Assembly: GCF_030684315.1 (NCBI RefSeq)
Contig: NC_081361.1
Coordinates: 56,217,553 to 56,281,552, forward strand
DNA length: 64,000 nucleotides
Source of the DNA: Stegostoma tigrinum
Lineage: Eukaryota
Direction of reading: 5' to 3'
The notes under the pieces were generated by a model that had not been told where the DNA came from, ran no database searches, and saw nothing but the letters and a program-made list of their open reading frames with translations. Position numbers and translations under genes: made by a program. Of the stretch, positions 13,789 through 61,951 are shown one piece after another; position 1 is the first letter of the stretch; every line of letters begins with the position of its first letter.

Positions 13789-15294
13789 TAGCACTTGGGA
13801 TTTCTGTTTCTGAGCTGGCAGGAATAGTTTTCTTGATGCATCATTTGAGATTACCAAGCAACTACCTAAAGGGAAACACCAGTACAAAAAAAAAGGTCGT
13901 ACTTGAATATGAACATACCGGTCATACTGGTCCTTCATTTTGATGTACAAGAGAGTTAGACCAGTATACCTCATTTCTTTCTATTCATTCACATATGTGG
14001 TGACCCTTACTAAACCAGCATTTCCTGTCTATCCCTAGTTGTCTTTGTGAAGATGGTGTTGAGCTATGTCTTGAACCACTGCATTTGGAGTGTAGATAAA
14101 CTCACATTGCGGTTAGGGAGAGATTTCTGGATTTTGACCCATTCAATTTAACTGGTTTTGAGGCAATGAACAAAAGAGGAACACAATGACATGGGATTAG
14201 TTATATTACTAGGTGACAAGAAGGGGAAGCAAATAAAAAAATACAGAAACTAGAGAGAACGATAAAAATAGAAAAAAGACATCAGTAATCTTTCCAATAG
14301 AAGGGAATGAAACATCACACGATATTCAAACTAATGTATCTTTCTTAATGGATGCTGTTATTTCCAGATTGATGGAGGAGCTTCTGCTCTGCAAAGTCAT
14401 AAAATCAATAAACCTAACAGTTTTTAGATTACAGCTGAAAACTAGATAATGATGATGATGATGTCAGGTTACTGTTGATTGTCAATTTTAATTTCTGCAA
14501 ATCAAAGAATTTTTTTTTTGCATTTAACTTTTATATTTTGTTGCAATCAAGTCTTTTGGCTATCACGAGTGTAATAATGTTGCATTACCACTGGGGGTCA
14601 GTAGTGCTTCAAGAACTGAATGTTTGCGCAGCTAGAGGCCTGACAAATTTACTGCATAACTGATGGTAGATTGTGATATAATTAGACATTGACAGATGGT
14701 ATACTTATAATACAACACTAAGAAATATTGCAAATTTCAGTAACTGAAACTGTTAAGCAATTGGCTTCTTTCTTTCAAAAATGAATTTATAGATTAAACT
14801 ATGATACTTAGGATGAGGGAATTCAGAATTCATTTATCAAAGATCAATCCAAATACAAATACTTTAAAAAGCATGGAATAGCTCTAGGGGTTTAAAGTAA
14901 GAACAGAGTACTAATCAGTAATAACCAATGCAAATGCAAGATTTTTTTAACTTACTGTGAGGACTTTGCAACCAGTGTTGAATAAGATTATCTAAACTGT
15001 GGAAAATAACCACATTTTCAGATGTGATTTATGTCCACCAAAGAAACAAGATTGAAGGACATTCTCTGCTGCAATGGTAAAACATACTGTTGCAAGGGTA
15101 ATTTGAATATCTGGACCCTTGGTATTCGAAAATACTACTATAGGAAGTGGAAACCTGAAAATGCAGGTCTCTAAAAGACTAAAAACACTGTACAAAAATA
15201 AGAATTAGTTTCATTTTTGTTTTTTCTTGGACAGAGGGAAAGAGATAGGGAGAATATTAAAGTGTTGTGTGGGAAGTACACTCCTACAATGTCA

Positions 15295-15520
15295 GAGATA
15301 ATGGGAACTGCAGATGCTGGAGAATCCAAGGTAACAAAGTGTGAAGCTGGATGAACACAGCAAGCCAAGCAGCATCTCAGGAGCACAAAAGCTGACGTTT
15401 GGGGCCTAGACCCTTCATCAGAGAGCTCTCTGATGAAGGGTCTAGGCCACAAACGTCAGATTTTGTGCTCCTGAGATGCTGCTTGGCCTGCTGTGTTCAT
15501 CCAGTTCACACTTCGTTATC
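15295..15520. mobile_element. Penelope-derived fold-back element with 14-bp TSD
   Basis: Loopless palindrome centred at 15425/15426 (TCATCAGAGAG|CTCTCTGATGA); TSD CTCCT[A/C]CAATGTCA at 15281-15294 and 15520-15533. Confidence 0.9.
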
Positions 15521-18084
15521 TCCTCCAATGTCATTTCCTTTTTCATTTAAGCATTTTTAAGGCTACCTATGCTGAATTATTTAGTCAAAAGTCTATCAGT
15601 CTGATCATCGAAACAAGTTAATTTGCAGCAGTGACAGTTGTTGGAACATGGAACAAATTCCACATAAATATCTTAGGTTTCAGATGTCAACCTCCTAGCT
15701 GCGACATGGTATTAAGATGACTATAAAAGTTGTGTATGCATGCTGGTATCCAACTTTAGATCTGAATGGCTGTGACAATTGGTAAACTCGTCCTTGTTTA
15801 CATCGATCTCAGGCATATCACATTTCACAAACATCTTTGGTCCTCAAGTCCACCCATTGACTCTCACAGCAAGGGCTTCTGACAATTCAGGTGAATCAAA
15901 AAATCAGAACAGAGACTTCATTTACCTCCTGTCAATGCGGGCTCCTTCCAATTGGTGCTTTTACCTAGATGTCCATTGTTTAGAGGTAGCGAACACTAAA
16001 CAAAGAAAGCGCCATTGGTTGCTGAACCAGAATTATTGGATTAAATGTTAGGCCATGAGAAGCACTGGCAATCCAACAAGTTTTTGTTTACCTTTTCCTG
16101 TTCCAGCAGCCACCACATGAGGGAGCTGTGTCTCCATTTTACAGCCTCCAGATGTGTCTATACCCCTAATATTTAAAAGGAAGCATTAAATATCTAAATA
16201 AACTGAATTAAAAGTTCAAACAGACTAAATCACTAAACGTTTCTACGATCTTGTATTTTTGTACTAATATCTGGAATTGGATTAATAATAGTTTACAACT
16301 TTTCATCAATACTTTTAATATCAGAGAATTATCATTTTGAGATAAGGGTAAAGGAGCTTACAAATCACTTCTGATGATATTAATGTCCAAACACATTTGT
16401 GTGATATTCCTCAGTGCCAGTTTATTGCAGGAGTTCACCAATTATTTCAAGTGGGAGGAATGCCACCTCTAAAAACAAGGTACTGCGGAATGTCAGAGTG
16501 CCATAATAAACACTTGTTCGCTAATACCATCAACAGGGATTTCAGCCAGAATTGCCATCAATAAATTATTTTTAGTTTTACAAGGCATGCTTACTCTCTC
16601 AGTATTTCAGTAGTTAAATACATTGGCTGTTATGTTGAGCAAAGCAGACCACACCTGCCCCAGGTTTGAATGCTGGCCTGAGCTGTTCTTAGCCAACATG
16701 TGGATGTGTTGGTATTGGACTGTTCTCAGCCAAGACAGCTTTTAGTTTGTGTGCATCTGCGTTAGTGGAAGGAATAGTAATCACCCAGGGTTTCTATACG
16801 AGACCATTTTTCAATCTGGAAAATGTCTGTATATATCTGAAGCAGCAGCTGCTAATGTTACATTTCTCCCAGTTTTGATGTACTGAAGTCAGTAAAATTC
16901 CGAGAGAGTTAAAATTGGCAGCTGACCCATTTTACAGTATTGCAAAGAAGCAAATGAACTGTGCCTATGGATATCTGGTGGGGACAGAATCCTGCTTAGT
17001 TGTGGTAACTCTTGATCTGTTAAAGAATAACCTCTTGGTAAAAGGACTCAAAGTTAACCATGAAAATATAGCCCAGTTTGTGTGAGTGCCTTCAGGAGAG
17101 AAATATAGAAAGTTGCAAAATAAGAGGAGGAAGATGGGGATCTTGCTCTTTTAAAAAACTCACAAACACATAACTGTTTAGTCATTATTTTCACCATTTT
17201 CTGAAAAGAAATCTACTGTCTTAAGAAATAAATAGAAAAGGAATATTTTTTTTTATTTGGAGTGGACTCTCTTCCTCATCCCTGTATAGCTAGAACACTG
17301 GGAGCTAATTATTTCCACAGTGTTGTTTAAGGTTTCTACTGGAGAGTTTGTCAAGCACCTCCTTCTTGAGAAAGCAGGCATTGTTTGTTTAAACTGCAAT
17401 AACTTGATGAATTAAACAACGAAGGTTGTTTTTCTTTGTGTTCTTCATTTGTACAGATAAAACTAAAGTGATATCTTTAATAAGTTCAGATATTCTGTTA
17501 TATTCAATTATCATGGTAAAAGTTATGAACAATGATAATAAGTGGGTTATGATATCCCACAGACAATGCCAGCCTCGGACACCCAGCCTGATTACTCAAA
17601 TTTCATTTGACCTTTTATAGCCTTGTTGTAATAAACCCAGCTCTTCAACTCAATTGTTAGCAATTTACAGTGAGCCTTGGAAGAATACTTTTAAAAATCT
17701 AACTTTGAATCTTGGGAGAATTCCAGTAAACAAGCCATTCACATCAAACAAGTGTTTTTTTCTCTGGCCACGTAATATTCTCATCATATTGAAAAGATCA
17801 GTGTTGAGGTTAAAACATTAGCATAGAGCTAATGATTCACTTAATTATCAATACTCTCACATAATTGCTATCATTGTCTCCTGAAAGAGACAAAGGAGGA
17901 AGCATCTCTCAGTTTGTTGGAGTTGAGAAATGTAACTGCACCCTGTGACTGAAATACATTTGCCAAGAACCCCAGGTACCATTCAGATTTGGTGCTTTTA
18001 CTGTTGCACTGTACATGGACCACAGAACAACTCAGAATCTTTTCTTCTCTGCCATTGACAACGACCTTCATATTTATTTTAAAC

Positions 18085-18181
18085 AAAACCAGAAATTGCT
18101 GGAGAAATTTGGCAGGTCTGGCAGCATCTGAGAAGAGAAATCAGAGCTCACGTTTCAGCACCTGTGACTCTTCTTCAGAAC
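18085..18181 (-). mobile_element. Penelope terminal-repeat fragment with decayed hammerhead motif
   Basis: Minus strand reads CTGAAGAAGAGTCACAGGTGCTGAAACGTG. Confidence 0.55.
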
Positions 18182-18429
18182 ATTTATTTTAAATTAACCT
18201 GTACAGACCTATTATGACCTACTTTGCCAGGTGGGACTTGAACCCAAACATTCCATTCCAACATACCACTATGCCACGTAGTCCTTAGCCCAAGTCATAT
18301 GCTGTCCTCAGTTGGCCATACATGTTTTTAAAACAATATGCAATGTTCCTCTCAGCAGGTATGAGTTCAATGGCTCGTAAAATTTTCATGTCCAGACCTT
18401 ATTAGAAACAGACAGCAAGCTTCCCACAG

Positions 18430-19984
18430 CAGTGAGTTTGTGTGTGTCAGCAAGAGAGAGAGTCGGGTGTGTGAGATATGAGTATGAGTGTGTCTCAGAG
18501 GTGGTTGTATGTGTGAAAGAGATGTTTGTGTGTGTGGGGTAGACACGTGAGCGTGTATGTGTAAGAGAGGGAAAGAGATGGGTGAGCATGTATGTTAGTG
18601 TGTAAGAGAGAAGGGTGTGCATGTATATGGGCATGTGTGTGTGCGCGTGTGTGAGAGAGATAGAGACGGGTCTGCGTGTATGCGGGTATAGGTGTGTGTG
18701 TGTGAGAGAGAGAGAGATGGGTGTGGGTGTGTGTATGTGCGAGAGAGNNNNNNNNNNNNNNNNNNNNNNNNNNNNNNNNNNNNNNNNNNNNNNNNNNNNN
18801 NNNNNNNNNNNNNNNNNNNNNNNNNNNNNNNNNNNNNNNNNNNNNNNNNNNNNNNNNNNNNNNNNNNNNNNNNNNNNNNNNNNNNNNNNNNNNNNNNNNN
18901 NNNNNNNNNGTGTATGTGGCTGTGTGTGAGAGAGAGACGGGTGTGTGTGTATGTGTGTGAGAGAGACGGGTGTGGGTGTGTGTATGTGTGTGTGAGAGAG
19001 AGACGGGTGAGGGTGTGTGAGAGAGTGATGGATGTATGTGTGTGTGAGAGACGATTGTGGGTATGTGTGTGTGAGAGAGAAAGAGAAACAGGTGTGCATG
19101 TGTGTATATGAAAGAGGTGGGTGTGTGTATGTGACAGAGACCGGTGTGGGTGTGTGTGTGTATGTGAGAGAGAGAGAGAGACGGGTGTGCATGTGTGTGT
19201 GTGAGAGAGAGAGACGGGTGTGCACGTGTGTGTGAGAGAGAGACGGGTGTGGGTGTGTGTGAGAGAGAGAGACGGGTATGGTTGTGTGTGTGTGTGTGAG
19301 AGAGAGAGACGGGTATGGTTGTGTGTATGTGCGAGAGAGAGAGAGACGGGTTTGGGTGTGTGTATGTGTGTGTGAGAGAGACAGGTGTGGCTGTGTGTAT
19401 GTGTGTGAGAGAGAGACGGGTGTGGGTGTGTGTATGTGGCTGTGTGTGTGAGAGAGACGGGTGTGTGTGTATGTGTGTGAGAGAGAGACAGGTGTGGGTG
19501 TGTGTGTGTGTGAGAGAGAGACGGGTGTGGGTGTGTGTGTGTGANNNNNNNNNNNNNNNNNNNNNNNNNNNNNNNNNNNNNNNNNNNNNNNNNNNNNNNN
19601 NNNNNNNNNNNNNNNNNNNNNNNNNNNNNNNNNNNNNNNNNNNNNNNNNNNNNNNNNNNNNNNNNNNNNNNNNNNNNNNNNNNNNNNNNNNNNNNNNGTA
19701 TGTGACAGACAGAGACCGGTGTGGGTGTGTGTGTGTATGTGAGAGAGAGAGAGAGAGCCGGGTGTGTATGTGCGAGAGGGAGAGAGACGGGTTTGGGTGT
19801 GTGAGAGACGGGTGTGGGTGTATGTATGTGTGTGTGTGAGAGAGACGGGTGTGTGCATGTGAAAGAGATGGGTGTGGGTGTGTGTATGAGTGTGTGAAAG
19901 AGATGGGTGTGGGTGTGTGTATGTGTGTGTGAGAGAGACGGGTGTGGGTGTGTGTATGTGGCTGTGTGTGAGGGGTGACCGTGC

Positions 19985-20020
<36 letters not shown>

Positions 20021-20110
20021 CGGGTGTGGGTGTGTATATGCGTGAGAGAGAGACGGGTGTGTGTATGTGGCTGTGTGTGTGAGAGAGAGAGGTGGCTGTG
20101 TGTGTGAGGG
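18430..20110. repeat. Compound (GT)n/(GA)n micro/minisatellite with recurring GAGAGACGGGTGTGGGTGTG unit; contains two N gaps
   Basis: Seen directly; gaps at 18748-18909 and 19545-19697. Confidence 0.95.
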
Positions 20111-22050: not shown

Positions 22051-22370
22051 TATCCTAGCTCATTCCTATTGCCAACTTCACCCACCTGTAAGCATGACCA
22101 GTATCAACCTCCATTATGTTCAAACAGAAACCCAAGGATTTGGGCACAGGCTGTCAGGACATCTATATCTTGTTGGCACATTCAGCTGCCAGTCTTCAAC
22201 ATTTATCCATTACACTAAAAAATGTAAAATAAAATCACATAAAAAGAGCATCTAACAAGCCACTCCTAATGGGTCTATCAATCAATAATTGTTAAAATAT
22301 TGGACACTACGTGAGGAAAATGCACCCGACAATCACCCATTTTTCCAAAACAACACCAGTGTTAAAACAG

Positions 22371-22992
22371 AGATCGTAAGAATTGTAGATGCTGGATTCA
22401 GAGGCAACACAGTGTGGAGCTGGAGGAACACAGCAGGCCAAGCAGCATCAGAGGAGCAGGAAAGTTGACATTTTGGATCAGGACCCTTCTTCAGAAATGG
22501 GGAGGGGGAAGGGAGCTCAGAAATAAGTAGAGAGAGAAAGGATGGAGCTATGGAAGGTGGGTGTGATGGTGATAGGTGAGTGCAGGTAGGCAATGGTGGG
22601 GATTGGTTAGTGTAATGGGAAGAGCTGATAGGTGGGAGAGAAGTTGGACAAGTTGTATCAGGTGAAAGAGGCAGGGATTGAGAGGGAGGCTTGGGCATGG
22701 GATGAGGCTGGAGTTAGGGAAATTTTGAAACTGGTAAAATCCACTTTAGGCCATTGGGCTGTAGGCAAAATATGAGCAGCTGCTCCTCCAGTTTGTGTGT
22801 GGTGACATTGTGGCACTGGGGGAGCCCAGGATGGGCATGCCACCCAGGGAGTGGGAGTGGATGGTTTGCGACCAGAAGGTGTTGTCATTTGTTGCAAACA
22901 GAGCACAGATGTTCTACAAAGTGATCTATGAGCCTCTGCTTGGTCTCACCGATGCTGAGGAAGCCACATCAGGATCAGTGGATTCAGTAGAC
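22371..22992 (-). mobile_element. 5'-truncated Penelope-like element with 17-bp TSD
   Basis: Similar to 2250-2846 on the reverse strand; TSD CAC[C/T]AGTGTTAAAACAG at 22354-22370 and 22993-23009; decayed hammerhead CTGAAGAAGGGTCCTGATCCAAAATGTC. Confidence 0.85.
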
Positions 22993-23469
22993 CACTAGTG
23001 TTAAAACAGTTGAATTTTCTGCTGTGATCTATTAAACTCCACTGCTTCAGAAGTTTCTGGATGACATCTTGTCTTAGTGGCAATTAGTTGTTAATTGTAG
23101 TGCAGGCATAAATGTCCAGAGTTTAGTTGTCTCAAAGATTGAATTCCCTATTCATCAGCTTTTCAGGAAACTGTCAGAAGTGGCATAAAATATGGAGGAC
23201 ATTTTTCAGTTTGTAATTTTATGTAAGGTTGCCAACTTTGATTGGAGATATTCTTGGAGATTTATTCACAAGGCATTTCACCAAGTGACATTTAATCATT
23301 TGACATCAATCTTGTGACATCTGAGCACTTCGGCTGGATCAAATGGCACTTGCCACTGTTATGTGTTTATCTTACTATGGTTATGTCCCCTGTAGCTAAG
23401 CATTTTTGCACGAGCAACTATTGTGCAAAATCTTCCAAGACAAGTTCCAAGGAGAAAGAATGTCATTCA

Positions 23470-24424: not shown

Positions 24425-25406
24425 CAGTGTCTCAATTGTGGTGTGTTGTAAGGATCAGCACTGGGTTAACTGCTCTTTGTCATTTATTTAAATGATTTGG
24501 ATCTGAATATAGGAGGAATGATTAATAACTTTGCAGTTGACACCAAAATTGGTGGTATAGTGGACGGTGAAGAACGTTATCTCAGACTACAACAGGACAT
24601 TGATCAGATGGGCTGATGGGGTGACAAGTAGCAAATGGAGCTTAATTTAGTTAAATATAGGGTTTTGCATTTTGACAGGACTTATACAGTTAATGGTAGG
24701 ATCCTGGGGATTGTTGCTAAACAAAGAGACCTAGAGGTACAGGAGCATAGTTACTTCAAAGTGGAGTTGCAGGAAGAAGAAGGTGTTTGGTACACTTGCC
24801 TTTATCTGTCAGTGCATTGAGTATAGGTATTGGGATGTCATGTTGCAGCTGTGCAGGACATTGATTAGGCCACTTTTGGAATACTGTGTTCAATTCTGGT
24901 CTCCCTGCCAAAGGAAAAAATGTTAAATTTGAAAGGGTGCAGAGAAGATTTACAAGGATGTTGCTGGGGTCGGTGGTTTTGAGCTATAGGGAGAGGCTGA
25001 ATAGGCTCGGGCTATTTTCCCTGGAGCATCCTTGAGGGGTGCTTATAGAGATTTGCAAAATCATGAGGAGCATGGATATCAAGGCCTTTTTCCCAGAATA
25101 GGGGAGTTCAAAACTAGAGGGCATAGTTTTAAGGTGAGGGGGAAAGATATAAAAGGGACCCAGAGGCAAATTGTTTACACAGAGGGTTGTGCATGTGTGG
25201 AATGAGAGGAAGTGGTGGAGGCTGGTATGATTACAACATTTAAAGGCATCTTTTAAATGGGTATATGAATAGGAAAGATTTAGAGTGATAAGGGCCAAAT
25301 GCTCGAAAATGGAACTAGATTAGTTTAGGATGTCAGGTCGGCATGGATGAGTTGGATTGAAGGGTCTCTTTCCATGTGTACAGCACTATGACTCTGTGAC
25401 TCTATG
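24425..25406 (+). mobile_element. CR1 LINE 3' fragment
   Basis: Decayed FAxDTK RT motif (FAVDTK), RPLLEYCVQFWSP, ERVQRRFTRM; short tandem tail. Confidence 0.9.
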
Positions 25407-26265
25407 TTAGTATGTAGATAAAGCCTTGAAATGGCTAACAAATCCTTGAGTTTTATAAATAGAGAAAAAAATCAATCCATACTAAACGTTAGGGCAGAGT
25501 TACAGTACCAGGTGGAGTTGCCCAGTCCAATGTAGAAAGACTATAAAGCCAGAGAAAACATGGATTCATCATGATGATGCCAGTGATTGTGAAATTATGA
25601 GAAGAAATGTGGTTTTTTTATGATTTCCATGGGACAAAGAATTGAAAGAATAATTATGGGAAGATTTTACAATTTCTTTGGGAATTCAGTAATACAAGAT
25701 CATCAATTAAAATAATTACCAATAGAGTGAGAAATCTATTTATGCAAAAGTTTGTTGAAACTTAGCCTGTTTTTCTACAGGAAGTGCCTAAGACAGGACA
25801 TCTTTATGGAAAACTGAAGAAGGAAATGAAGTTAAAGCATATGGTCAAAAAAATAGGCAGTAATATAACGTTTGAATTGGTTTAACAGAAGACCAACACA
25901 GATATAATGGTCTCCTTCTCTGTTCCATACTTAGCACACAGCAATATAGACCCTGTAATTTTTCTGATCCATATAGTTAACTAACACCATATGGCTTTGC
26001 TATATCTATTAAATTATGAAGTTGAAATATGTATTCAGTGTTTGGCATTATAATTGACTTAAAACCAGCAACTGAGATATAATTTCTATGAGACTTCATA
26101 TTTCAGTTTGAAGGAGGTAACTGTAATGTATTGATACTACAGACCAGCTTCCTGACAGAGAAATTCGCACTGAGAGGACCCAGTTTCTGATAATTGATAA
26201 TATAACTAGATAATGGGGCAGCTGCTCTGTTAAGCTACTACTTAGTATGCCTATGCTATTGATTT

Positions 26266-29110
26266 CTAAAGAACAATAGAGCACAGGAACAGGTCCTTCA
26301 GCCTTCCAAGCCTGTGTCGACACATTTTGCCCTTCCACACTACAACTTCCTGTAAGTCCCTCTATTCCTTTCCAATTCATGTATTTTTCCAGGTACTTCT
26401 TGAATGCTGCTACGGTGTCTGCTTCCACCACCTTGTCTGGCAGCATGTTCCAGGCACCCACCACCCTCTGTGTGAAAAATTTGCCTCTCACATCTCTTTT
26501 AAACTTGCCTCCACCACTCCACCCCCGGACCTTGAACTTGTGCCCCCTCGTAATTGATTCATACACCCTGTGAAAAACCTCAGACTTTCCACCCTACCTA
26601 TGTCATTTACAATCTTTAAACTTCTACCAGGCCACGTCTCAACGTCCCACTTTCCAGTGAAAACAAAACCAGTCTATTCTTCATTTCTTCATTGCTAAAA
26701 TCCCCCATACCAGGCATCATGCTGGTAAACCTTTTCTGTACCCTCTCCAAAGCAGTGTGGTGACCAGAGCTTTACGCAATATTCCAAGTGTGGCCTAACT
26801 AATGTACTACAAAGCTACAGCATTACTTGCCTATCCTTATATTCTGTGCCCATTCCAATGATGGCAAGCACGCCATAACCCTTTTTACTACTTCATCTAC
26901 CTGCTCTGCCACCTTCAGCGATCTGTGGACCAACACACCCAGATCCCTCTGCATATCAGTAATGAGAAGGGCTTATAATTTCCACCTGACCCTGACCTTT
27001 GTCACCTTCTAAAATGTGTCATCTCACATGTGTACAGATTAAGTTCCATCTGTCATTTTTCTGCCATTGTCTCCAGCTGGTCTATATCCTGCCATATCCT
27101 CTGATAATTCTCACTATCTGCTACTCCATCAATCTTTGTATCATCTGCAAACTTACTAATTAGACCAGCTATGTTTTCTTCTAAATCAGTTATGTAGATC
27201 ACAAACAGTGCTGATCCCTGTGGAACACCACTAGTTACAACCCTTCAATCCAAAAAGCATCCTCCTAACACTACACTCTGTCTCCTATGCCTAAGATAGC
27301 CATGATGTGGAGGTAGTGGTATTGGTCTGGTGTGTTTCAAAACCATACAGATGTTGGGACAATGGATAAATGGACACTACGTAACAACTGCCAGACAGTG
27401 ATGTTCCCTCCCAGTGGGGGAACCCTTCAGTGCTCAAGGACATTCGGCCTCAGATCTTCAGGTAAACGTCCTCCAAGGCAGACTTCAGGATACATAACAA
27501 CGCAGAGTCGCCGAGCAGAGGCTGATTGCTGAGTTTGGTACCCATGAGGATGGGTTCAACTGGGATCTTAGGTTCATGTCGCACTTAAGGTGACCCCACC
27601 AAACTGCACCCATGCACACACATCCACACATGCACATCCACACACACACACCTGTGAATCAATGGTGTGAATTTGTATTTGCAGATTTTACTTTGTTCAA
27701 AAAACACATAAAATTAAACAGCCAATCAATATGGCGTTTTATAAATTCCTGCTTTAGAAATAATACCAGACAACTCCAAACCGTAACACAAACAGATTCT
27801 AAAGAAGCTCTCACACCTAACATGCATTGTCTGACCTAAATGTCACCTCTTCTTTACACTGCTAAAACTTTTACTTCTCTCAGGAATTCTGGGATTTACA
27901 TGTACATATTAATCAATTAAAACCTTCTAACTGATTGAAGACTTAACAGCATCTCAGGTTTGTTTAGTACATCCTCATCAATGGTGTGAACCTTTGATCT
28001 TTTACTTGTAAATTCTATGTCTATACTACCTCTCTCACTAGTACCTGAAGAAGGACTGATGCTCTGAAAGCTTGTGTTTTCAAATAAACCTGTTGGACTA
28101 TAACCTGATGTCGTGTGATTTCTGACTTTGTCCTATGACTCAGCCAATTCTGTATACATCTTGCCAGCTCAGTCCGATACAATGAGACTTCAACTTTTGT
28201 ACCAGTCTGCCATGAGGGACCTTGTCAAAGGCTTTACTAAAGTCCATATAGATAACATCAATTGCTTTACCCTCATCAATCATCTTCATCACCTCCACAA
28301 GCATCTTGATCAAGTTAGTGAGACACAGCTTTCCCTGTACAAAACCATGCCATCTATCACTAATAAGTCCATTTGCTTCTAAATGCATACTGATTTTGTT
28401 CCTGGGATTCTTTTTCAATAATTTTCCGACCACTGATGTGAGGCTTACAAGGCCTGTAATTTCCTGAATTATCCCTGCCAACCTTCTTAAACAATGGGAC
28501 AACATTGACTACTTTCCAGTCTTCTGGGACCTCCCCTGTGGCCAAAGAGGATACAAAGATGTAAGTCAATGCTCCAGCAATTTGTTTACTTGCCTCCCTC
28601 AATATTCTGGGAGTGATCCCATCAGGACCCAGGGACTTATCTACCTTAATACTTTGTAATATGCACAACACCTCTCCCTTTTAAAAAGCAACTTGGTTAG
28701 AAATTGTCACTCTTCCCCAAAATTATCTTCCATCAATTCCTTCTCTTTGGTGAATACTGATACAAAGTATTCATTTAGGACCTCATCTGCCTCTTCTGGC
28801 TCTGCACATTGATTCCCTGCTTTGTCCTTGAGTGGACCGACCCTTTCCCTGGTCACCCTCTTGCTTTATATATATGTATAAAAAGCTTTGGGATTCTCCT
28901 TAATTCTGTTTGCCAATAACTTTTCATGACCTCTTTTAGCCCTTCTAATTCCTTGTTTAAGTTCTATCCTACTTTCCTTATATACTTCAAGAGCTTCCAT
29001 CCTCCTAAACTTTGTGTAAGCTTCCTTTTTCTTTTTGACCAGGGTCATAACATCCAAGGTTCACATAACTTGCCATACCTATCCTTCATTGTCCCAGGAG
29101 TGTTCAAATT
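26266..29110 (-). mobile_element. CR1 LINE (~2 kb of ORF2), interrupted by a Penelope element
   Basis: GPDGITPRIL, GNYRP, YMDFSKAFDKVPH and FFTQRVV motifs on the minus strand. Confidence 0.92.
27300..28130 (+). mobile_element. Penelope-like element (second subfamily) nested in CR1
   Basis: GIY-YIG C-terminal remnant (GHSASDLQVNVLQG...AEQRLIAEFGTHEDG); terminal CTGAAGA-AGGACTGATGCTCT-GAAAGCTT at 28045-28073; approximate TSD TCCTATG(C/A)CT(A/C)AG. Confidence 0.8.
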
Positions 29111-32059: not shown

Positions 32060-32860
32060 GCACATGAATATGGGCAATGATCATCTTCAATAAGAGACAA
32101 TCTGACCATTATTTCTTGAAATTTGATGGCATTACCATCACTGAATCCTCCATGATCATCATCCAGGTCAAAGCAGACCACTTGATTGATACTACATCCA
32201 TAAACGTCCACTCCCTCTAACACAAACACTCAGAAGCAGCATAAAAACCGAAAGGACTGTGATTGCTGTAAATTAGGAACAGAAACAGAAGTTGCTGGAA
32301 AAGCTCAGTAGGTGTGGCAGCATCTGTGAAGAAAAAAAAATCAGGTTTAACATTTCGGGTCCGGTGACCCTTCCTTAGAACAGCAGTTCTGATGAAGGGT
32401 CACCGGACTCGAAACATTAACTTTGATTTTTCTCTGCACAGATGCTGCCACACCTGCTGAACTTTTCCAGCAACTTCTGTTTTTGTTGTGACTCAGAAGC
32501 AACAGTCTGTACCATCGACAAGATGAACTACAAAAATTGACCAAAGATCCTTAGATAGCACTTTCCAAACACACAACCACTCCCATTATGAAGGACAAGA
32601 ACAGCTACTTGTGATCGCCGCCTACTTCTAAGTTCTGCTCCAAACCACTCACCATTTCTGATATGGAAATATATCATTGTTCCTTCAGGTCATGAGTTGA
32701 AAATCCTAAAATTCCCACCCTTACAGAATTGTGCATTCACGTACAGCATGTGAACTGCTGCGGTTCAAGAAGGCAGCTCAGTACCAGCTTCTCAACGCTA
32801 ACTAGGGATGGCGATAAATACTGGCCCAGCCAATGATGCCTAACGTGAATAAAATAAAAG
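32060..32860 (+). mobile_element. LINE 3' fragment (tail shared with the local SINE family), interrupted by a fold-back element
   Basis: Ends CTGCGGTTCAAGAAGGCAGCTCA...CTAGGGATGGCGATAAATACTGGCC. Confidence 0.6.
32242..32490. mobile_element. Penelope-derived fold-back element with 14-bp TSD and hammerhead motif
   Basis: Inverted arms; CTGATGA-A-GGGTC-ACCG-GACTC-GAAACATT at 32389-32418; TSD ACTCAGAAGCA[G/A]CA at 32228-32241 and 32491-32504. Confidence 0.88.
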
Positions 32861-32934: not shown

Positions 32935-33441
32935 TTCCATACACGCACCACCTTCTGCTTGAGAAAGTTTCTCCCTACATCCCTTTTATATCTTCCCCCT
33001 CTCACCTTAAACCTATGCTGTCTTGTTTTAGACTCCTCCACCCCAGGGAAAAGACCTGGCCTTTTTACCCTATCCATGCCTCTCATGATTTAATAAACCT
33101 CTATAAGGTCTCCACTCTGCCTCTGATGCTTCTGGGAAAATAGCCCTAGTTTATTCAACCTCTCTCTATAGCTCAAACCCTCCAACACTGGTAACATCCT
33201 CATAAATGTTTTCTGAACCCTTTCTAATTCACGACATCTTTCCTACAGGAGAGAAACCAGAATTGCACACAAACTCCAAAGGTGACCTAACCAATGTCCT
33301 GTATGGCCACAGCATGACCTCCCAACTCCTTTACACAATGCACTGACCAATAAAGGCAAGTATACCCAATGTCTTCTTCATTAGCCCATCTACCTGCGAC
33401 TCCACTTTCAATGAACCTGCGCTCCAAGTTCTCTTTGTTCT
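32935..33441 (-). mobile_element. CR1 LINE fragment
   Basis: MRGMDRV...HRFKVRGGRYKRDV on the minus strand. Confidence 0.85.
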
Positions 33442-33442
33442 G

Positions 33443-34350: not shown

Positions 34351-34695
34351 GCTGTCTGATTTGTATTTTGGACAATCCTCAAACAGCACACGTCTCGATG
34401 ATTACTTTAATTATATGTGGGCAATTGAAACTGAAATAAGATTATTGTTGAAAAGCTTTGTCCCCTGTGATCTTTGCAGAAATCCCCCAGTGCACTTCTG
34501 GTTAATTAGTAGCACAGTAACAGTCACTGACAGTTAGACGTAAAGTAGGAGTATCTGTCTGTAGGTGGATCCTTTTATTACTTTCATGGAGTGTTAAGCA
34601 AGTACATCGAGTTTCATGGTTGTTCAGAACATTCACCTCACACCTCTGGGACCTCAGCTTGAATCCAGCTCAGACAGCTAAAATGAAACTCTGAC

Positions 34696-34760
34696 ATAAT
34701 AAAATGTGAAGCTGGATGAACACAGCAGGCCAAGCAGCATCTCAGGAGCACAAAAGCTCT
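34696..34760 (-). mobile_element. Single truncated arm of the fold-back family
   Basis: GTGAAGCTGGATGAACACAGCAGGCCAAGCAGCATCTCAGGAGCACAAAAGCT flanked by repeated AA[A/G]TGAAACTCTG. Confidence 0.7.
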
Positions 34761-43056: not shown

Positions 43057-43832
43057 CATAGAACATAGAACAATATAGTGCAGAACAGGGCCTTCGGCCC
43101 TCGATGTTGCGCCGACTTGTGAACTAATCTAAGCCCATCCACATACACTATCCCATCATCATCCATATGGTTATCCAAGGACTGTTTAAATGCCCCTAAT
43201 GTGGCTGAGTTAACTACATTGACAGGCAGGGCGTTCCACACCCTTACCACTCTCTGAGCAAAGAACCTGCCTCTGACATCTGTCTTAAATCTATCACCCC
43301 TCAATTTGTAGCTATGCCCCCTTGTACAAGCTGAAGTCATCACCCTCGGGAAAAGACTCTCACTGTCCACCCTATCTAATCCTCTGATCATCTTGTATGT
43401 CTCTATTAAATCCCCTCTTAACCTCCTTCTCTCCAATGAGAACAGACCCAAGTCCCTCAGCCTTTCTTCATAAGGCCTTCGCTCCAGACTAGACAACATC
43501 CTGGTAAATCTCCTCTGCACCTTTTCCAATGCTTCCACATCCTTCCTGTAATGGGGCGACCAGAACTGCATGCAATATTCCAAGTGAGGCCACACTAGCG
43601 TTTTTGTACAGCTGCAGCATGACATCACGGCTCCAGAACTCAATTCCTCTACCAATAAAACCTAACACACCATAAGCCTTCTTAACAGCACTATCAACCT
43701 GGGTGGCAACTTTCAGGGATTTATATACATGGACACCAAGATCCCTCTGTACATCCACACTACCAAGAATCTTTCCATTGACCCAGTGTTCTGCATTCCT
43801 ATTATTCTTCCCAAAGTGAATCACCTCACATT
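43057..43832 (-). mobile_element. Young CR1 LINE 3' fragment
   Basis: Nearly open ORF2 C-terminus (PHLEYCMQFWSPHYRKDVEALEKVQRRFTRM...FFAQRVV) and TTCTATG tandem tail. Confidence 0.93.
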
Positions 43833-46695: not shown

Positions 46696-46830
46696 GAGTG
46701 CCCAGGGAGAGTGTGTCAATATTTACAGAGTGCCTGGGGGGAGAATGTGTCAGTATTTACAGGGAGCCCGGGGGGGGGGGGGGGGGGGGGTGTGGGTAGT
46801 GTGTCAGTATTTACAGAGTGCCTGAGAGAA
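46696..46830. repeat. ~32-bp minisatellite (GTGTCAGTATTTACAGAGTGCC..) with embedded G21 run
   Basis: Three degenerate units; poly-G at 46770-46790. Confidence 0.75.
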
Positions 46831-46945
46831 GTTTCAGCACCACTGTGAGAACACCCCTCTGCAAGAGAAACAGGACAAAATAGATCTGTTAAAGGAACAG
46901 TGTCATCATGTAGCCAGCTCATAGTCTCCCACATTGATATTGCCA

Positions 46946-47168
46946 GTGATAATGGGAACTGCAGATGCTGGAGACTCCAAGATAACAAAGTGTGAAGCTG
47001 GATGAACTCAGCAGGCCAAGCAGCATCTCAGGAGCGCAAAAGCTGACGTTTCGGGCCTAGACTCTTCATCGATGAGGGGATGAAGAGTCCAGGCCCAAAA
47101 CGTTAGCTTTTGTGCTCCTGAGATGCTGCTTGGCCTGCTGTGTTCATCCAGCTCCACACTTTGTTATC
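46946..47168. mobile_element. Penelope-derived fold-back element with 12-bp TSD
   Basis: TSD TTGATATT[G/A]CCA at 46934-46945 and 47169-47180; GATGAAGAGTCTAGGCCCGAAACGTC on the minus strand. Confidence 0.9.
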
Positions 47169-47654
47169 TTGATATTACCATATTGGATTCAGCCAGTACC
47201 AATATCTTTGACTTTTCAAAAGAAATTCATTAGTTAAAACTTCCTCCTCTCCCTTTATCATTTTTTGTTCTGTGTGTGAATGAAATAGTGAAGCCAATCC
47301 CCACATTTTGAACGTTTTGTTGATAAGCCTTATCTTTGGCTTCATCCTAAAAGGATTGTGTTATGAATTTATTTCAAAAATTGTAATCCAAAAAAAATCA
47401 GGATTTGTAGAACATCCTTTGGCCTACTTCATTAGAGAAAAGAGTAAAAAGAGAAAAGAGTACATCAAGCAATACCTCACCATCTTGATCAGAAACAGCA
47501 ATTGCTATTTAAATTCACCCCATTCCCCCTAAACTAAGCCAATATTCTTACACAGTCTTTCCATACACTCAGCTCGCAGGCAGGCACACATATTCTTGCA
47601 AGACATGGATTTGTATGAGATAATAAATCCTATTGTGCAATAGTATATCCCATT

Positions 47655-48160
47655 CATAGAATCACTACAGTGCAGGTAGAAGTTATTTGGCCCATAGAGT
47701 CTGCACTGAGCCTCCAAAGAACATAGTATCAGAGACAGTAGGAACTGCAGGTGCTGAGAATCTGAGATAACAAAGTGTAGAGCTGGATGAACACAGCAAG
47801 CCAAGCAGCATCAGAGGAGCAGGAAGGCTGATGTTTCGGGCCTAGACTGAAGAAGGGTCTTCAGCCTACCTGCTCCTCTGATGCTGCTTGGCCTGCTGTG
47901 TTCATCCAGCTCTACATCTTGTTACCTCCAAAGAACATACCTCCCTATCCCTGTAACCCCACATTTACTACCTAATCTACATACTACAGGACAATTTAGC
48001 ATAACCAATTCACATAATCTGCATATTTTAGACAACAGGAGGAAAGCCACATGGACATGGGCAGAATGCACAAACTTCACACAGAAAGTTGCCTGAGGCT
48101 GGAATTGAACCCAGGTCCCTGGTGTCATGACACAGCAGCAATGATCACTGAGGCACCATG
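47655..48160 (-). mobile_element. HE1-like (V-SINE) elasmobranch SINE, interrupted by a fold-back element
   Basis: Minus head TCAGTGATCATTGCTGCTG...GGGACCTGGGTTCAATTCCAGCC; GCTAAATTGTCCTGTAGT V-domain-like segment; CR1-like tail. Confidence 0.75.
47726..47924. mobile_element. Penelope-derived fold-back element with 15-bp TSD
   Basis: TSD CCTCCAAAGAACATA at 47711-47725 and 47925-47939. Confidence 0.85.
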
Positions 48161-48578
48161 ACATCCGTTACTTGAAGCTGATTTGAATTTAGTGCTGAAA
48201 TGCAGTAAATTTCATTTTAAAGAATGACTTGTGTGTTTTACGTACATATGCTTATGTTTGAGATGTTTAGGAGCCTCAAATATTAGGGACCTAACATTAC
48301 ATATTCTAAAAGCAAGATGATTCACAGGTATAAACTTGAAAGCAGTGTTTAATTATCCATTGGAATAGAGATAGACAAAAAGGGACATCAATAGCAAATC
48401 CATTAAAAGGAAGCTCCAATTTTCTCAGCGTTTATATTTACTATCTAAACTACCTCAGTTGGTTCATGCATCCCAAAGTCAAAATCCACATCTTTATTTT
48501 GAAAACTCTTTGATGCCTCATCCTGTTTTGCATCTGTAATCTCTTTCAAGCTCACACCCAGCCTGTTTCCATTTGTCC

Positions 48579-48884
48579 GACAACCTCATCCAGCCCCCTT
48601 GACCTGTCCGTCTTCCCTTTACTGGCCTATCCCCTCCCTACCTCCCCACCTACACTCACCCTTACTGGCTCCATCCCCACCTCTTTGACCTGTCTGTCTC
48701 CTCTACACCTATCTTCTCCTCTATCCATCTTTGATCCACCTCCCCGTCTCTCCCTATTTATTTCAGATCCCCCTTCTCCTCCCCCATTTCTGATGAAGGG
48801 TCTAGGCCCGAAACTTCAGCTTTCCTGTTCCAAAGATGCTGCTGATGGCCTGCTGTGTTCATCCAGCTCCACACTTTGTTATCT
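48579..48884 (+). mobile_element. Penelope 3' end with perfect 16-bp TSD and hammerhead motif
   Basis: TSD CTGTTTCCATTTGTCC at 48563-48578 and 48885-48900; CTGATGA-AGGGTCTAGGCCC-GAAACTTC at 48790-48817. Confidence 0.9.
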
Positions 48885-49462
48885 CTGTTTCCATTTGTCC
48901 TCTTGTTTTGGCTTTATATCCATTTCTGTCCTTCCCATTGATGGAGGAATATTTTGTGGGCTCAGGCCTATTTCTAGCTTATTTCTCTGTTCCTCTCCAA
49001 AAGTCTTGGTAAATCCTATTCTTTTGAATTTGCCTGCAGTAATGCTTCTACAATTGCTTGATTCTCCTCTGAAGGGTGATTACCGCAAAATAAGATACTC
49101 ATTTTTGTTGTTCTGGATATCCCTGGTTGTTGATCATGGGCTGTTGATAACACAGAACTTGATAATGAGCAGTGGTACTGCTTTTGTTTAATTAGGTGAA
49201 TATTTGATGCATTATTTAAAAAGCATTTCTGTTAACTGTTCAGTTATTAGTTAAATACTTGTTATTTTATTGAAAGGTTCTGTTTAATTTTAAATAAAGA
49301 AAAATTCACACATTGTAAGCATGTCTACGAAAATGCAATTTTCCTTTATTCTGAAAATGAAGTGAGATAAGAATTTAGATTGAAATGATATAGGTGTTAA
49401 TTAGTCTCCTTTCTAAGGGGAATATCACAACTTGTTTACCATTCGATAGTGAAACATGCCCT

Positions 49463-50151
49463 AAAATGCTCAGGCTGTCCTGATCAGTAGGCACTCGATG
49501 TGTTTAGCATAAATATAGTGAACAAACACAGCTAAAACAATGTTAGTAGTTTCTGGCATAATGTAGTTAAGTAATATTCCACAAATTTATTACATAAGGG
49601 TCAATAATTTCAATTGGGGCAGCACAGTGGCTCAGTGATTAGCACTGCTGCCTCACAGCGCCAGGGACTGTGGTTTGATTCTGCCTTTGAGTGACTGCCT
49701 GTGTGGAGTTTGCATGTTCTCCCTGTGTTTGCTCCAGGTAACAAGGTATAGAACTGGATGAACACAGCAGGCCAAGCAGCATCAGAGGAGCACAAAAGCT
49801 GATGTCTTGGGCCTAGGCCCAAACCATCAGCTTTCCTGCTCCTTGGCCTGCTGTGTTCATCCAGCTCTACACCTTGTTACCTAGAGTAAACACAGGGAGA
49901 ACGTGCAAACTCCATACAGTCACTCAAAGGCAGAATCGAACACAGATACCTGACGCTGTGAGGCAGCAGTGCTAACCACTGAGCCACCGTGCTGCCCCAA
50001 TTGAAATTATTGACCCTTTTGTAATAAATTTGTAGAATATTGCTTAACTACATTATGCCAGAAGCCACTAACATTGTTTTAGTTTTGTTTGTTCACTGTA
50101 TTTACGCTAAACACATTGAGTGCCTTCTGATCAGGACAGCCTGAGCATTTT
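49463..50151. repeat. ~690-bp imperfect palindrome (host DNA + HE1 SINE head + Penelope arm, inverted)
   Basis: Centre GGGCCT|AGGCCC at 49814/49815; AAAATGCTCAGGCTGTCCTGATCAG at 49463 mirrors CTGATCAGGACAGCCTGAGCATTTT ending at 50151. Confidence 0.95.
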
Positions 50152-50849
50152 CGGCCTAGGCCCGAAACGTCAGCTTTCCTGATCCTCTGATGCTGCTTGG
50201 CCTGCTGTGTTCATCCAGCTCTACATTGAGGTTATAAGTGGATGGGTCTTGGCGGCATGCTGCAAGGATCATTGTGGGCTTGTTGGGCAGAAGGACCTGT
50301 ATTCACACTATGGGGATTCTATGTCTAATCTCACATTCTTACTGTATAAAAGCAGAATAAGTGTGTATTTTGGAACCTACCTGATTTGTTTTAGTGCAAG
50401 TGTGATCAATTTGTTATAGTCAATAAGTATCTTAATCTTAAAATTTATATAAATTTTCACACTAATGATAGTAAAAAGATAAATTTGATGAATATTTAAA
50501 TACTCTATTTAAAATGTTGATTTGGATATAACTAACCAGAGGTTAAGTCAACATTTTAAAAATCACTCCTTATAACACAAATTAATTTCTAATCCATTAA
50601 CTAATTTGAACTCAGCATTATCCATTGCAAATTTTCACCACGTGCTGTATTTAAATGTAAATGTTTTGGACGGTGACAACCCTGGTATTAGGATTTTCTT
50701 TCGGGGCAGTACGCAAATATTAAAAACTCCATCGTCTTAATTAGGGTATTTTCGGTCTCATTTACAGCAAGACGATACATAAAAGCTTTGCCATGTCGGT
50801 GTCCTTTCAAAAGTAACAACTGGCAATAACTATTCAGCTGAACACATGA

Positions 50850-53990: not shown

Positions 53991-54947
53991 TCAAAACGTT
54001 TGCAGCTGCTGCGTTAGCATGAGTTGGCAGCCGCTGTTTACGTGATTCATAACTTTCTGCTTCAGCTGGGCAACCTGTTCTCGCAGCAGGTTTGCTGTGG
54101 ACGCTAGTTCAGAGTTCTGCGCCTTTAAGGTTTTCACTTTGTCTTCCAGCCTGGCAATTCTCTCCAGTTTCCTTTTACGGCACTTTGAGGCGGCGATGCG
54201 GTTTCTCATTCGCTTCCTCTCGGCCTTGATTCGTTCCTGAGATTCCATGTCAATAGGAGACAACGGCGGGGTCTCCCCGGGCATCTCGGGCACCGTCTGA
54301 GGTTCTTCCTTCAATGCCTGAAGTCTGGGATGCTGCACAGGCATTTGGTGGTTCATCGGATGATGCTGGGGTGCTGCATAGTTCATATTATTGCCGTTGT
54401 AGTTAGGCTGCGCGGTGATCGAGTTAGGGTTAAAATTGTTGAGATTAGCGTAGACCGGAGGCTCTTGGTGCAAATTTGAATTGTAAACAGTACTTGCACT
54501 GGGCAGAGAGGCAGAAACCGCGATCGCCGTATTTGCAGACGGAGTTGAACATGTCACGTTGGGCAGGATATTCTGTTTATGAAGTTCTTCAAGAGCTTTG
54601 ACAAAGCCTTCAGCAAAACCCTCCTGTTCGTCCGTGACATTTCTGGGGCATAGGAACTGGGTCGGTGTTGGGGTGGTGGTGATCAGTCCATTGCTGGACT
54701 GAATTATAAGACGTTCAAGTTCAGGTGATGCGAGTTTGAGAAGTCCCACGTCCGGAGACGTTAATATACCTTCACTGTTCTTGTTCCTCAGATGGGGCTT
54801 CAAGTTGCTCGCTGGATCAGACAGGTTCAAAGTCATATTTTGTTTCAACATTTTCGCACTGTATCCATAACCACTATTTTCAGGCTGTGCAAAAGCTGCG
54901 TTCAGTGCATCGTCGTGGTAGAATGGCTGTTCCATCTTCGTAGACAT
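53991..54947 (-). CDS. jun: Transcription factor c-Jun (AP-1), 318 aa, intronless
   Basis: [10 protein letters not shown] start; delta domain; [21 protein letters not shown] (JNK sites); TTTPTP; [12 protein letters not shown]; b[28 protein letters not shown]; ends LTQQLQTF. Confidence 0.98.
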
Positions 54948-55199
54948 AGAATACCGATGGAAGAAAACTCTTTGATACAAAAGTGTTTTAAAATAGATGT
55001 AACAGAGTTCTTGAAGAGTTCGAATAAGTCTACTCGGTTACCTGTTAAGCTCACAATTTCAATAATAGAAACGTAATTTGGGAAATCAGTTGATTTCTTT
55101 TCCCACTAATTTCTCCTGCTGTACCAGTTTTCAGTAAGAATGCTACCAAATCAAAAGAAAAGTGTTCAAACTACCAAGTTCCTCCAGCTTGTTTCACAC

Positions 55200-58709: not shown

Positions 58710-59570
58710 TACTGTTGAGTACAAAATTCAAGGCTGAAACTTTAGTGCAATGCAGAAGGAGTGCTGCATTGTTGGAGATGCCATCCTTTAGGTGAGATAT
58801 TTGCATGAGGTTCAAATGTCTGCTGGAATATTGTAAAGAACATAAGTTTATAGGAAAAGGAGTAAGCCATTTGCCCCCTCAAGCCTGCCAGCCGTCTAAT
58901 AAGACCTGGTGTGAGCTCCGTATATCCCTCAATGCCCTGATATTTTAAAACATATTTGTACCTCTCTTTTTAGTGACCTAGTTTTCATAATTGCCTGGAG
59001 TAAAGACTTCCAATATTTTCTACCCTCTGAGAATAAATTCTTCTGTATCTTGGTTTTAAATGAATGACCCTTTATTCTGTGACAAGTAATAACAAGAAGT
59101 AGGATTAGGCCATTCGGTCAAAGCTCCCAGGTCACTAGTTCAAACAATAGCAGTGAAGCACTTCTGGCATCCTGGCCAATATTTATCTCTCTAACAGCAA
59201 AAAGCATTGTTATTATTCACATTGCTGTTTGTGGGAGTTTATTGTGCTCAAGTTGTCTTTCCTAACATTTCTAACATTATTAAAGCAGCTAAACTCCAAA
59301 AGTAAAGATAACAAAGTGTGGAGCTGGATGAACACAGCAGGCCAAGCAGCATCTCAGGAGCACAAAAGCTGACGTTTCGGGCCGAGACCTTTCATCTGGT
59401 GAAGGGTCTCGGCCCGAAATGTCAGCTTTTGTGCTCCTGAGTTGCTGTTTGGCCTGCTGTGTTCATCCAGATCCACACTTTGTTATCTTGGATTCTCCAG
59501 CATCTGCAGTTCCCATTATCACTAAACTCCAAAAGTACTTCGGTAGATTCATAAGTCAGCGCTTTGCCAC
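58710..59570 (+). mobile_element. DeuSINE (SacSINE1-like) with nested CR1 fragment and fold-back element
   Basis: GGAGTGCTGCATTGTTGGAGATGCC... and TCCTGGCCAATATTTATC...CACATTGCTGTTTGTGGGAG segments; CR1 tail at ~58840-59080. Confidence 0.65.
59305..59521. mobile_element. Penelope-derived fold-back element with perfect 16-bp TSD
   Basis: TSD CTAAACTCCAAAAGTA at 59289-59304 and 59522-59537; long arm on the right. Confidence 0.92.
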
Positions 59571-60439: not shown

Positions 60440-60785
60440 TGGAGGTGGCGTTATAGTAGTAATGTGACTAGACTGGTAACCCAGAACTCCATGCTAATTG
60501 GCTTGAATCCCACCTTGGCAAATTTGAGCTTAAAAATATCTGGATTTAAAATAGAAAAACCAGCCTAGTGATGACAGTGACACTGTCAATTGCTGTAAAA
60601 ACGTAGCTGGATCACTAATGTCCTTCTAGAGATGGTGCTGTCTGCCCTCCTTACTCATCTGGTCTTCACGTAACTCCAGTCCAACAACACTGTGACTGAC
60701 CTCTAACTGTCCTCTGGACATTGTAGCATAAGCAGTCAATGCTGGCCTTTTCAGAAATACCAACGTCCCAAGAGCAAATAAAAAT
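60440..60785 (+). mobile_element. tRNA-derived SINE
   Basis: GGAGGTGGCGTTATAGTAGTAATGTGACTAGACT...TTGAATCCCACC head; related to 12190-12543. Confidence 0.65.
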
Positions 60786-61013
60786 GAGCGACTTATATTT
60801 TAATATTACCTACTTTAGAGTTTAGGTTTTGAGCTAATGGCATGTCGGTTNNNNNNNNNNNNNNNNNNNNNNNNNNNNNNNNNNNNNNNNNNNNNNNNNN
60901 NNNNNNNNNNNNNNNNNNNNNNNNNNNNNNNNNNNNNNNNNNNNNNNNNNNNNNNNNNNNNNNNNNNNNNNNNNNNNNNNNNNNNNNNNNNNNNNNNNNN
61001 NNNNNNNNNNNNN

Positions 61014-61951
61014 TTGATTTCATCAAGAGTTTTTAGGAGCAAACAAACTTCACGGTTGTGCATTAGCGTTTTAGTTTATAAGGTCAGTGTGATTTTATTT
61101 GTTCTTTTGATTAGAGGAAACACTGATAGCTTAGAAAAAACTTTTTCATTTTACTTTGCCAACTTTACAGCATCCTCGGCAGAAGATGGAAGTGTAAAGC
61201 AGTTGCTCTGAGAAAGGGAGATGGTTTAGAACCGGTAGAGTTAGATTTCTCATAAAAAGTTTAATTTGAAAGGTCCAGAGCAGAAGTGTTTGGTTGCAAC
61301 TTAAGGAGTAAGGGCCTCGGATTCTCAAAACAAGCAATTGAAGACACATTTAAATCAAATAGATGTGAAAAAGAAGGGAATTATCTTTGGTATCGGTACT
61401 GTAAAGAAATTAGATACGATAAAAAAACTGCAGATGCTGGAATCCAAAATAGACAAACAGGAGAATATAAGTAGACAGCAGGCCAGGCAGCATCTGGAGG
61501 AAAAGAGAAGTCAACATTTCAGGTGTCACCCATCTTCAGATCCTCCTCTCTCCCTTTTTTGTCTGCAACTCCCCCTACCCCCACATCCAGCCCTGAAGAA
61601 GGGTAGTACCTGAAATGTTGACTTCTCCTTTCCTCCAGGTGCTGCCTGGCTTGCTGTGTTCTTCCACCCTCCTGTTTGTCTACTGTAAAGAAATGCTTCT
61701 GAGATTAATGGAATTGTGTTTTACTGGGTTTCTCTAAATCTTTAAATTTGTGCCCTGGGTTAATAGATTGGGTTATTCTATTTTGGTATTTGCATAATAA
61801 ACTAATTTAATTGTTAAAACTGAATGTGCAGCATTGCGTGTTTCTGTTTCACTGAAAGATCACCGCTTCAGAACCAAAAGAAAAATCTATTAAGCCAGTT
61901 TTCAGTCTGGGATCTGCATTTAATGTAATAACATTAGCTGGGATCATAACA
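61014..61951 (+). mobile_element. Probable solo LTR (5' end in or before the gap)
   Basis: AATAAA at ~61796 and 3' end CTGGGATCATAACA, resembling LTR termini. Confidence 0.45.
61411..61680. mobile_element. Penelope-derived fold-back element with 14-bp TSD
   Basis: TSD TACTGTAAAGAAAT at 61397-61410 and 61681-61694; CTGAAGA-AGGGTAGTACCT-GAAATGTT at 61593-61619; ~50-nt spacer. Confidence 0.85.

Follow-up and report, generated by a model that had tools for sequence, protein, structure and literature searches.

Insertions of Penelope-like elements (PLEs) are described in the literature with an inverted pseudo-long terminal repeat (pLTR), a one-sided tail of 30-40 nt and target-site duplications (TSDs) of variable length (PMC3846280, PMC8557442 and PMC8969392, in their available parts). 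By what route PLEs make such inverted, tailed insertions is an open question according to PMC8557442 and is left open in the accessible text of PMC11167929, where the protein of a lizard Poseidon PLE is reported to cleave and extend both strands in vitro, with two internal reverse transcription start sites that bracket the tail. According to the same text, hammerhead cleavage was not required in vitro and the protein is predicted to be a dimer. Here we describe a window of 64 kb from the shark Stegostoma tigrinum (the whole stretch analysed, 64,000 nucleotides of contig NC_081361.1), which holds seven clean copies of a small hairpin whose two inverted arms correspond to a PLE 3' end. Each hairpin is probably one PLE insertion, formed anew at its site, and as the route to it we lean somewhat towards priming of reverse transcription from both ends of the target break. 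All results refer to this one window, and counts out of seven leave out two decayed hairpins (6107 and 352) and a rearranged one (49460-50225).

Structure of the hairpins and origin of their arms

The window contains 13 inverted-repeat pairs with stems of 46-93 nt that are 83-96% complementary, and these include all seven hairpins, which are named below by the first position between their TSDs (Table 1). The preliminary description of this DNA had listed at least seven complete fold-back insertions of about 200-270 bp; the seven that it named were all recovered, with 199-270 bp between the TSDs. The decayed hairpins 6107 and 352 and the rearranged copy 49460-50225 were absent from that list. 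Each has its own direct TSD, exact in four cases and with one mismatch in three, while in a chance control a TSD of at least 12 nt was found for 4 of 1914 random position pairs of equal spacing and tolerance. The TSDs had been given as 12-17 bp and are indeed long and variable, but none reaches 17: they measure 12-16 nt, or 9-16 nt once the microhomology of 2-3 nt seen at the join of short arm and TSD in four of the seven is subtracted. Their AT content is 68%, compared with 60% for the window. In every hairpin the element 3' ends point outward to the TSDs and the 5' ends meet centrally, the longer arm overhangs the shorter by 32-42 nt (30-40 nt had been anticipated), and the centre is distinct, as had also been noticed. 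If the two ends had picked their sites independently at 50:50, one tail per hairpin in all seven would have P = 0.008. The one-sided extension is thus real, but it had not been recognised as the published PLE tail, and the sequence quoted for it is the 33-nt tail of the four youngest copies and of those four only.

Judged from sequence comparison, the arms derive almost certainly from a PLE. Their sequence also terminates two longer remnants, at 1418-2846 (+) and 22369-22995 (-), the former of which matches the whale shark protein P0001 in three frames (E 6e-23 to 4e-51). Because a remnant with reverse transcriptase and GIY-YIG endonuclease parts ends in arm sequence, and P0001 carries both domains (RVT_1 and GIY-YIG), the arms appear to be the 3' end, or pLTR, of an endonuclease-bearing PLE. 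Pfam missed the frameshifted remnant at 1418-2846 (best E 0.088). A pair of cysteines between GIY and YIG (CCHH motif) is found in the window remnant and, by a strict pattern, in 75 of the 96 full-length relatives of P0001 (823-1939 aa). Upstream of GIY-YIG, a CX2-5CxxC linker is present in P0001 and in 71 of the 96 (71 of the 75 with a recognised GIY-YIG) and is decayed in the window's own remnant. In the available text of PMC8557442 this linker is assigned to Neptune and Nematis elements, and judged by the motif the source of the arms is a PLE of putative Neptune/Nematis type. The window contains no full-length partial-tandem source copy with a 5' pLTR. A search for proteins that start with the arm translation, as they might if a tail ran into an open reading frame (ORF), found none among 241 and, among 99, only a C-terminal read-through of P0002. 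A weak match to the GIY-YIG part of P0001 at 27306-27569 (+; E 6e-4) is possibly an older PLE remnant of another lineage.

The size, the fold-back shape and the fixed outer ends of the hairpins recall miniature inverted-repeat transposable elements (MITEs), in which case DNA transposons built from PLE ends would have been moved by a cut-and-paste transposase. Such an origin is very improbable: the termini are not mutual inverted copies, one end having the overhang of 32-42 nt, TSD length varies with or without the microhomology, the ends correspond to PLE 3' ends, the coding element that goes with them is a PLE, and single arms carry TSDs too. The earlier preference for target-primed retrotransposition over a MITE is borne out by the variable long TSDs, the PLE 3' ends and the asymmetric termini.

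The hammerhead in the arms is a motif match only. The core motif in the pLTR has an extra base before helix II and a G-C first pair, which fit the minimal hammerhead in the available text of PMC4209133. In the predicted structure 85% of cells pair, against 8-49% in slid controls, and covariation is no higher than in shuffles (174/500). Rfam returned no family at gathering score and no hammerhead match in the window; at 36800-37150 it gave generic hairpin and microRNA models only, below their thresholds. In copy 46946 the first bases of the core are missing in both arms.

Counted from the first base of this core, the short arms of the young lineage reach about +88 to +94 and the long arms about +125 to +127. 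At the other side, 13 of the 14 inner ends fall inside a zone of 15 nt, -4 to +11, the exception being in 61411, with about 50 nt of upstream PLE sequence. The proposal that Penelope terminal repeats meet near a hammerhead holds for the PLE 3' ends and for the position of their inner ends, but the hammerhead itself is a motif without Rfam match. Hammerhead cleavage as the setter of the centre was considered and rejected, because none of the 14 inner ends reaches the predicted cleavage site (+28/29), all being 5' of it, and only the single arm 34694 ends there. In that insertion (34679-34778) the bases after the cleavage-site end resemble the start of a second arm, and it is either a copy of cleaved RNA or a collapsed hairpin.

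The arms of the four young copies, 15295, 36866, 46946 and 59305, are 85-97% identical. Identity to the young arms is 80-88% for 47726 and 57-66% for 61411, for 32242 it is 51-56% to the two young arms compared, and both arms of each hairpin are of the same lineage. The single family that had been proposed is too narrow, because the arms of the seven fall into at least four lineages; on this basis the hairpins appear to come from at least four PLE lineages. No coding remnant of lineages B and C is present in the window. Three single arms (18084-18181, 34694-34763 and 48579-48884) have their own TSD and are all tail-less. As the same lineages left single arms with their own TSD, the hairpin seems to be an insertion mode common to several PLE lineages, and with seven clean copies against three TSD-flanked single arms the minimal hairpin is the commonest form of PLE insertion in the window.

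In three lineage-B insertions (895-967, 18084-18181 and 32242-32490) the inner ends lie at or beside one position, -3 to -5. This is the start of the 5' strand of hammerhead helix I, and a CAG there is a possible splice acceptor. Scans of metagenomes for further copies gave 0 matches with a 31-nt pattern and 120 loci with a 19-nt pattern, all of them chance matches (longest arm alignment 19-29 nt in 120/120).

Formation of the hairpins

Two options for the origin of the hairpins had been offered, and formation anew at each insertion is the likelier one, since the centres differ even among the four copies that are 85-97% alike. A common junction for 36866 and 59305 was considered and rejected, as the two differ when both are oriented long arm first. 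The earlier formula was extreme truncation plus inversion, and the truncation looks non-random in view of the narrow zone of the inner ends.

The other option is that a few master hairpins spread as non-autonomous retroelements by means of the PLE protein in trans, and that their centres were diversified later by palindrome instability. The similarity of four of the seven copies, with near-identical outer ends, and the high density in the window would fit this, and non-autonomous PLE derivatives are known in Chlamydomonas (available text of PMC8557442). We nevertheless regard it as unlikely, as there is no common centre in the seven and no arm-specific variant: among the eight young arms 20 sites are variable over +9 to +93, and none divides long from short arms. 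Between copies the distances are 7.3% for long-long, 7.7% for short-short and 7.4% for long-short comparisons (7.4% overall), and these equal distances mean that there is no arm-specific lineage. Within copies the young arms differ by 5.6%, and two variants are confined to both arms of a single copy, which also fits formation anew. A master RNA would need a 5' end exactly at the other start site in each round, and it would fold into a duplex of about 90 bp (-171 kcal/mol, predicted) that hides ribozyme and binding site; moreover, each of the at least four lineages would require its own master. The suggested spread of ribozyme-bearing hairpins is less supported for these reasons, to which the loss of the first core bases in 46946 is added.

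The direct TSD, together with cDNA-sense sequence on both target 3' ends, would be expected of priming at both ends of a staggered cut. In such a process the GIY-YIG nuclease would cut both target strands 9-16 nt apart, the distance that the TSDs suggest. Both 3'-OH ends would then prime reverse transcription on the element RNA, one at a distal site (about +127, the tail end) and one at a proximal site (about +93). Both cDNAs would terminate close to the 5' hammerhead edge (-4 to +11). A possible reason is that the pLTR copy used for priming is the 5'-terminal one of the RNA, whose own 5' end would act as the stop. The cDNA ends would finally be joined head to head via end-joining or short self-complementary stretches, and gap filling would yield the TSD. 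With one long cDNA instead, the same process would give the textbook element plus inverted 5' pLTR. PLE reverse transcriptases are not known to have RNase H. The end of the hairpin short arm (+88 to +94) coincides with the 3' end of the three TSD-flanked single arms, and therefore this site can serve for priming without any fold-back.

One tail per hairpin in all seven implies that, under two-ended priming, the two primings need coupling, as might be achieved if a dimer held one RNA and copied it twice. A more specific version, which we put forward tentatively and do not expect to be the likeliest outcome, is that one dimer with one RNA primes both break ends at start sites about 33 nt apart, always one each. 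The RNA would be copied twice and the two cDNAs joined, with no ordinary second-strand step, and a hairpin would be the default whenever the RNA terminates at the 5' hammerhead edge. If true, this coupled rule would account for tail, inverted pLTR and TSD in every PLE, and a very large number of such junctions and of hairpins of about 90 bp would be archived in shark genomes.

A possible but less probable route, by which each hairpin would also be formed anew, starts from a single cDNA that is primed at the tail end and terminates close to the hammerhead. This cDNA would fold back at a short palindrome and serve as its own template, and the resulting copy would be cut or halted about 33 nt before the end and joined to the other target end. 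Fold-back makes one tail per hairpin obligatory and suits the loopless or palindromic centres of 15295, 46946 and 49460-50225, the inverted flank copy in the last of these and the variants common to both arms of one copy. Variants of this kind confined to a single copy are +10 (46946) and +21 (15295). Self-priming was put forward from junction palindromes in PMC3846280 and nuclease resolution of the tail in PMC8557442, both as far as available. Fold-back does not readily account for the three TSD-flanked single arms, which finish at the short site without a partner, nor for the short arm of 61411, whose upstream PLE sequence of about 50 nt is not in the long arm and would call either for a separate template or for a first cDNA with a long end looped out. 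The variants +15 and +78, at sites variable between copies, are carried by both arms of 59305 and each by a single arm of one further copy (+15 in 36866, +78 in 46946); the disagreement between the arms of these two copies is a weak hint that arms may stem from different templates. In addition, both tail boundaries are reverse transcription start sites in vitro (PMC11167929, available text).

Several points weigh against two-ended priming and against formation anew. The basis is seven clean copies in one window, and with so small a number a perfectly symmetric master would likewise have no arm-specific variants. Perfect palindromes are unstable, so that the differences between centres could postdate insertion. 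In vitro the start sites were found not to differ between the strands (PMC11167929), so that the strict rule of one tail per hairpin requires a hypothetical coupling, whereas fold-back with nuclease resolution yields the asymmetry for free. Variants common to both arms are also compatible with fold-back or with gene conversion at a later time, and in 49460-50225 the inverted flank copy stands at 90-91% compared with 90% for the arms, as expected of fold-back synthesis entering the flank. The lizard element of PMC11167929 belongs to the Poseidon clade, unlike the source PLE here. In Drosophila Penelope the hammerhead begins at the intron end, and transcription starts about 120 nt further up (available parts of PMC2377424 and PMC4209133); an RNA that starts at the hammerhead edge is without precedent in the literature examined, as far as its text was available.

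In the rearranged copy at 49460-50225 the 6-nt palindromic centre recurs before the third arm, the return joint shows a microhomology of about 7/8 nt, and no TSD was found. This copy looks like fold-back synthesis run into the flank, or like a later template switch, which we take to be of the duplication-inverted triplication type.

Features of the window

Table 1. Hairpins and other PLE-derived features of the 64-kb window (inner ends counted from the first base of the hammerhead core)
Feature	Position	Strand	TSD	Span between TSDs	Parts	Centre or remarks
Hairpin, young lineage	15281-15533		15281-15294 + 15520-15533 (14 nt)	15295-15519 (225 bp)	Long antisense tailed arm 15295-15425; short arm 15426-15519	Loopless; both arms end at -4
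Hairpin, lineage B	32228-32504		32228-32241 + 32491-32504 (14 nt)	32242-32490 (249 bp)	Long arm 32242-32381; short arm 32386-32490	4-nt loop; both arms end at -3
Hairpin, young lineage	36852-37093		36852-36865 + 37080-37093 (14 nt)	36866-37079 (214 bp)	Long arm from 36866 (inner end +6 to +9); short arm 36986-37079 (inner end -1)	Offset join
Hairpin, young lineage	46934-47180		46934-46945 + 47169-47180 (12 nt)	46946-47168 (223 bp)	Long arm 46946-47070; short arm 47079-47168	8-nt slipped insert; both arms end at +3
Hairpin, older A lineage	47711-47939		47711-47725 + 47925-47939 (15 nt)	47726-47924 (199 bp)	Long arm 47726-47847 (inner end +11); short arm 47847-47924 (inner end +1, 12-nt internal deletion)	Offset join
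Hairpin, young lineage, opposite orientation	59289-59537		59289-59304 + 59522-59537 (16 nt)	59305-59521 (217 bp)	Short arm 59305-59396; long tailed arm 59396-59521	Offset join
Hairpin, lineage C	61397-61694		61397-61410 + 61681-61694 (14 nt)	61411-61680 (270 bp)	Long arm 61411-61542; short arm to 61680	Spacer of about 50 nt, the short arm's upstream PLE sequence
PLE, 5'-truncated, frameshifted	1418-2846	+			C-terminal part of reverse transcriptase, linker, GIY-YIG endonuclease, 3' pLTR with hammerhead motif (from 2719), tail
PLE, 5'-truncated	22369-22995	-			Endonuclease remnant, 3' pLTR, tail
Single tail-less non-inverted PLE 3' end	48563-48900	+	Exact, 16 nt		Body 48579-48884
Single tail-less arm, lineage B	18072-18193	-	Exact, 12 nt		Body 18084-18181	Inner end -3
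Single tail-less arm, young lineage	34679-34778	-	15 nt, one mismatch		Body 34694-34763	Similarity stops at predicted hammerhead cleavage site
Single tail-less PLE 3' end	13661-13790	+	None found
Degraded hairpin, lineage-B-like	6107-6322		At chance level			One-sided tail
Degraded hairpin, further lineage	352-552		At chance level			One-sided tail
Rearranged hairpin	49460-50225				Flank of about 275 bp, two tail-less arms, inverted flank copy, second copy of same centre, third arm

TSD searches at 13694 and 22370 found none. Just upstream of hairpin 46946 there is a 34-nt tandem duplication (46705-46775), and hairpins 59305 and 61411 lie 4-6 kb upstream of an intronless ORF at 53991-55037 (-), which looks like c-Jun (bZIP). 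A single-exon ORF of 751 aa at 7235-9490 (-) has an N-terminal CARD and many ankyrin repeats (Pfam). Decayed 3' fragments resembling long interspersed nuclear elements (LINEs; repeat families D9-D19), presumably CR1/L2-like, are found at 3086-3781, 24535-25394, 26096-26951, 33082-34353, 35729-36092, 39792-40154 and 43056-43749. A long (GT)/(GA)-rich tandem array at 18440-20110 contains two assembly gaps, and a third gap is at 60851-61013.

Significance and comparison with known systems

Each hairpin packs the two target joints and its centre into at most 270 bp and is therefore compact material for weighing two-ended priming against fold-back. Thousands of such insertions could be read from any shark assembly or from short reads, and they are easily mistaken for MITEs or microRNA hairpins. 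Ten hairpins per 64 kb would amount to roughly 150 per Mb if this one window, from which the figure is extrapolated, is typical, and hairpins at such a density might give rise to double-stranded RNA and to local rearrangements like that at 49460-50225.

In LINE-1 twin priming both target strands prime cDNA, which produces an inversion with a TSD, and each of the two parts is copied from a different stretch of RNA; in contrast, both arms of the hairpins described here copy the same stretch of about 90 nt. MITEs are similarly small, non-coding and of fold-back form, but the hairpins have neither symmetric terminal inverted repeats nor a TSD of fixed length. Retrozymes share the hammerhead, but their motifs stand in direct repeats that release a circle (PMC6155905, available text), whereas those of the hairpins are inverted. 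The available texts of PMC5753468 and PMC6155905 contain nothing further on hairpins. The literature searched contained no description of ORF-less PLE hairpins as the prevailing type of insertion in sharks, though Repbase, Dfam, Arkhipova 2006 or supplements may hold one.

The Poseidon element PAc of Anolis (PMC11167929, available text) likewise has two ends, which flank the tail at a distance of about 33 nt from each other and lie about 90-130 nt downstream of the hammerhead, and AT-leaning targets; it differs in clade, and neither hairpin products nor a coupling of start sites is reported there. The dual minimal hammerheads of Schistosoma are likewise derived from PLEs and lie on opposite strands, 100-700 bp apart, while the two cores of the present hairpins abut or overlap; in the accessible part of PMC4209133 they are treated in one sentence, without analysis of TSD, tail or junction. 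Closest are the insertions of endonuclease-bearing PLEs (Adineta Pen2a, PMC3846280; PMC8557442; both in available parts), which have the head-to-head inverted pLTR, the tail of 30-40 nt at one end, the variable TSD and palindromes at the junction. The shark hairpins differ from them in that no ORF or direct pLTR lies between the arms and both arms stop at the hammerhead. They are a minimal case of the known PLE architecture and are mostly explained by it.

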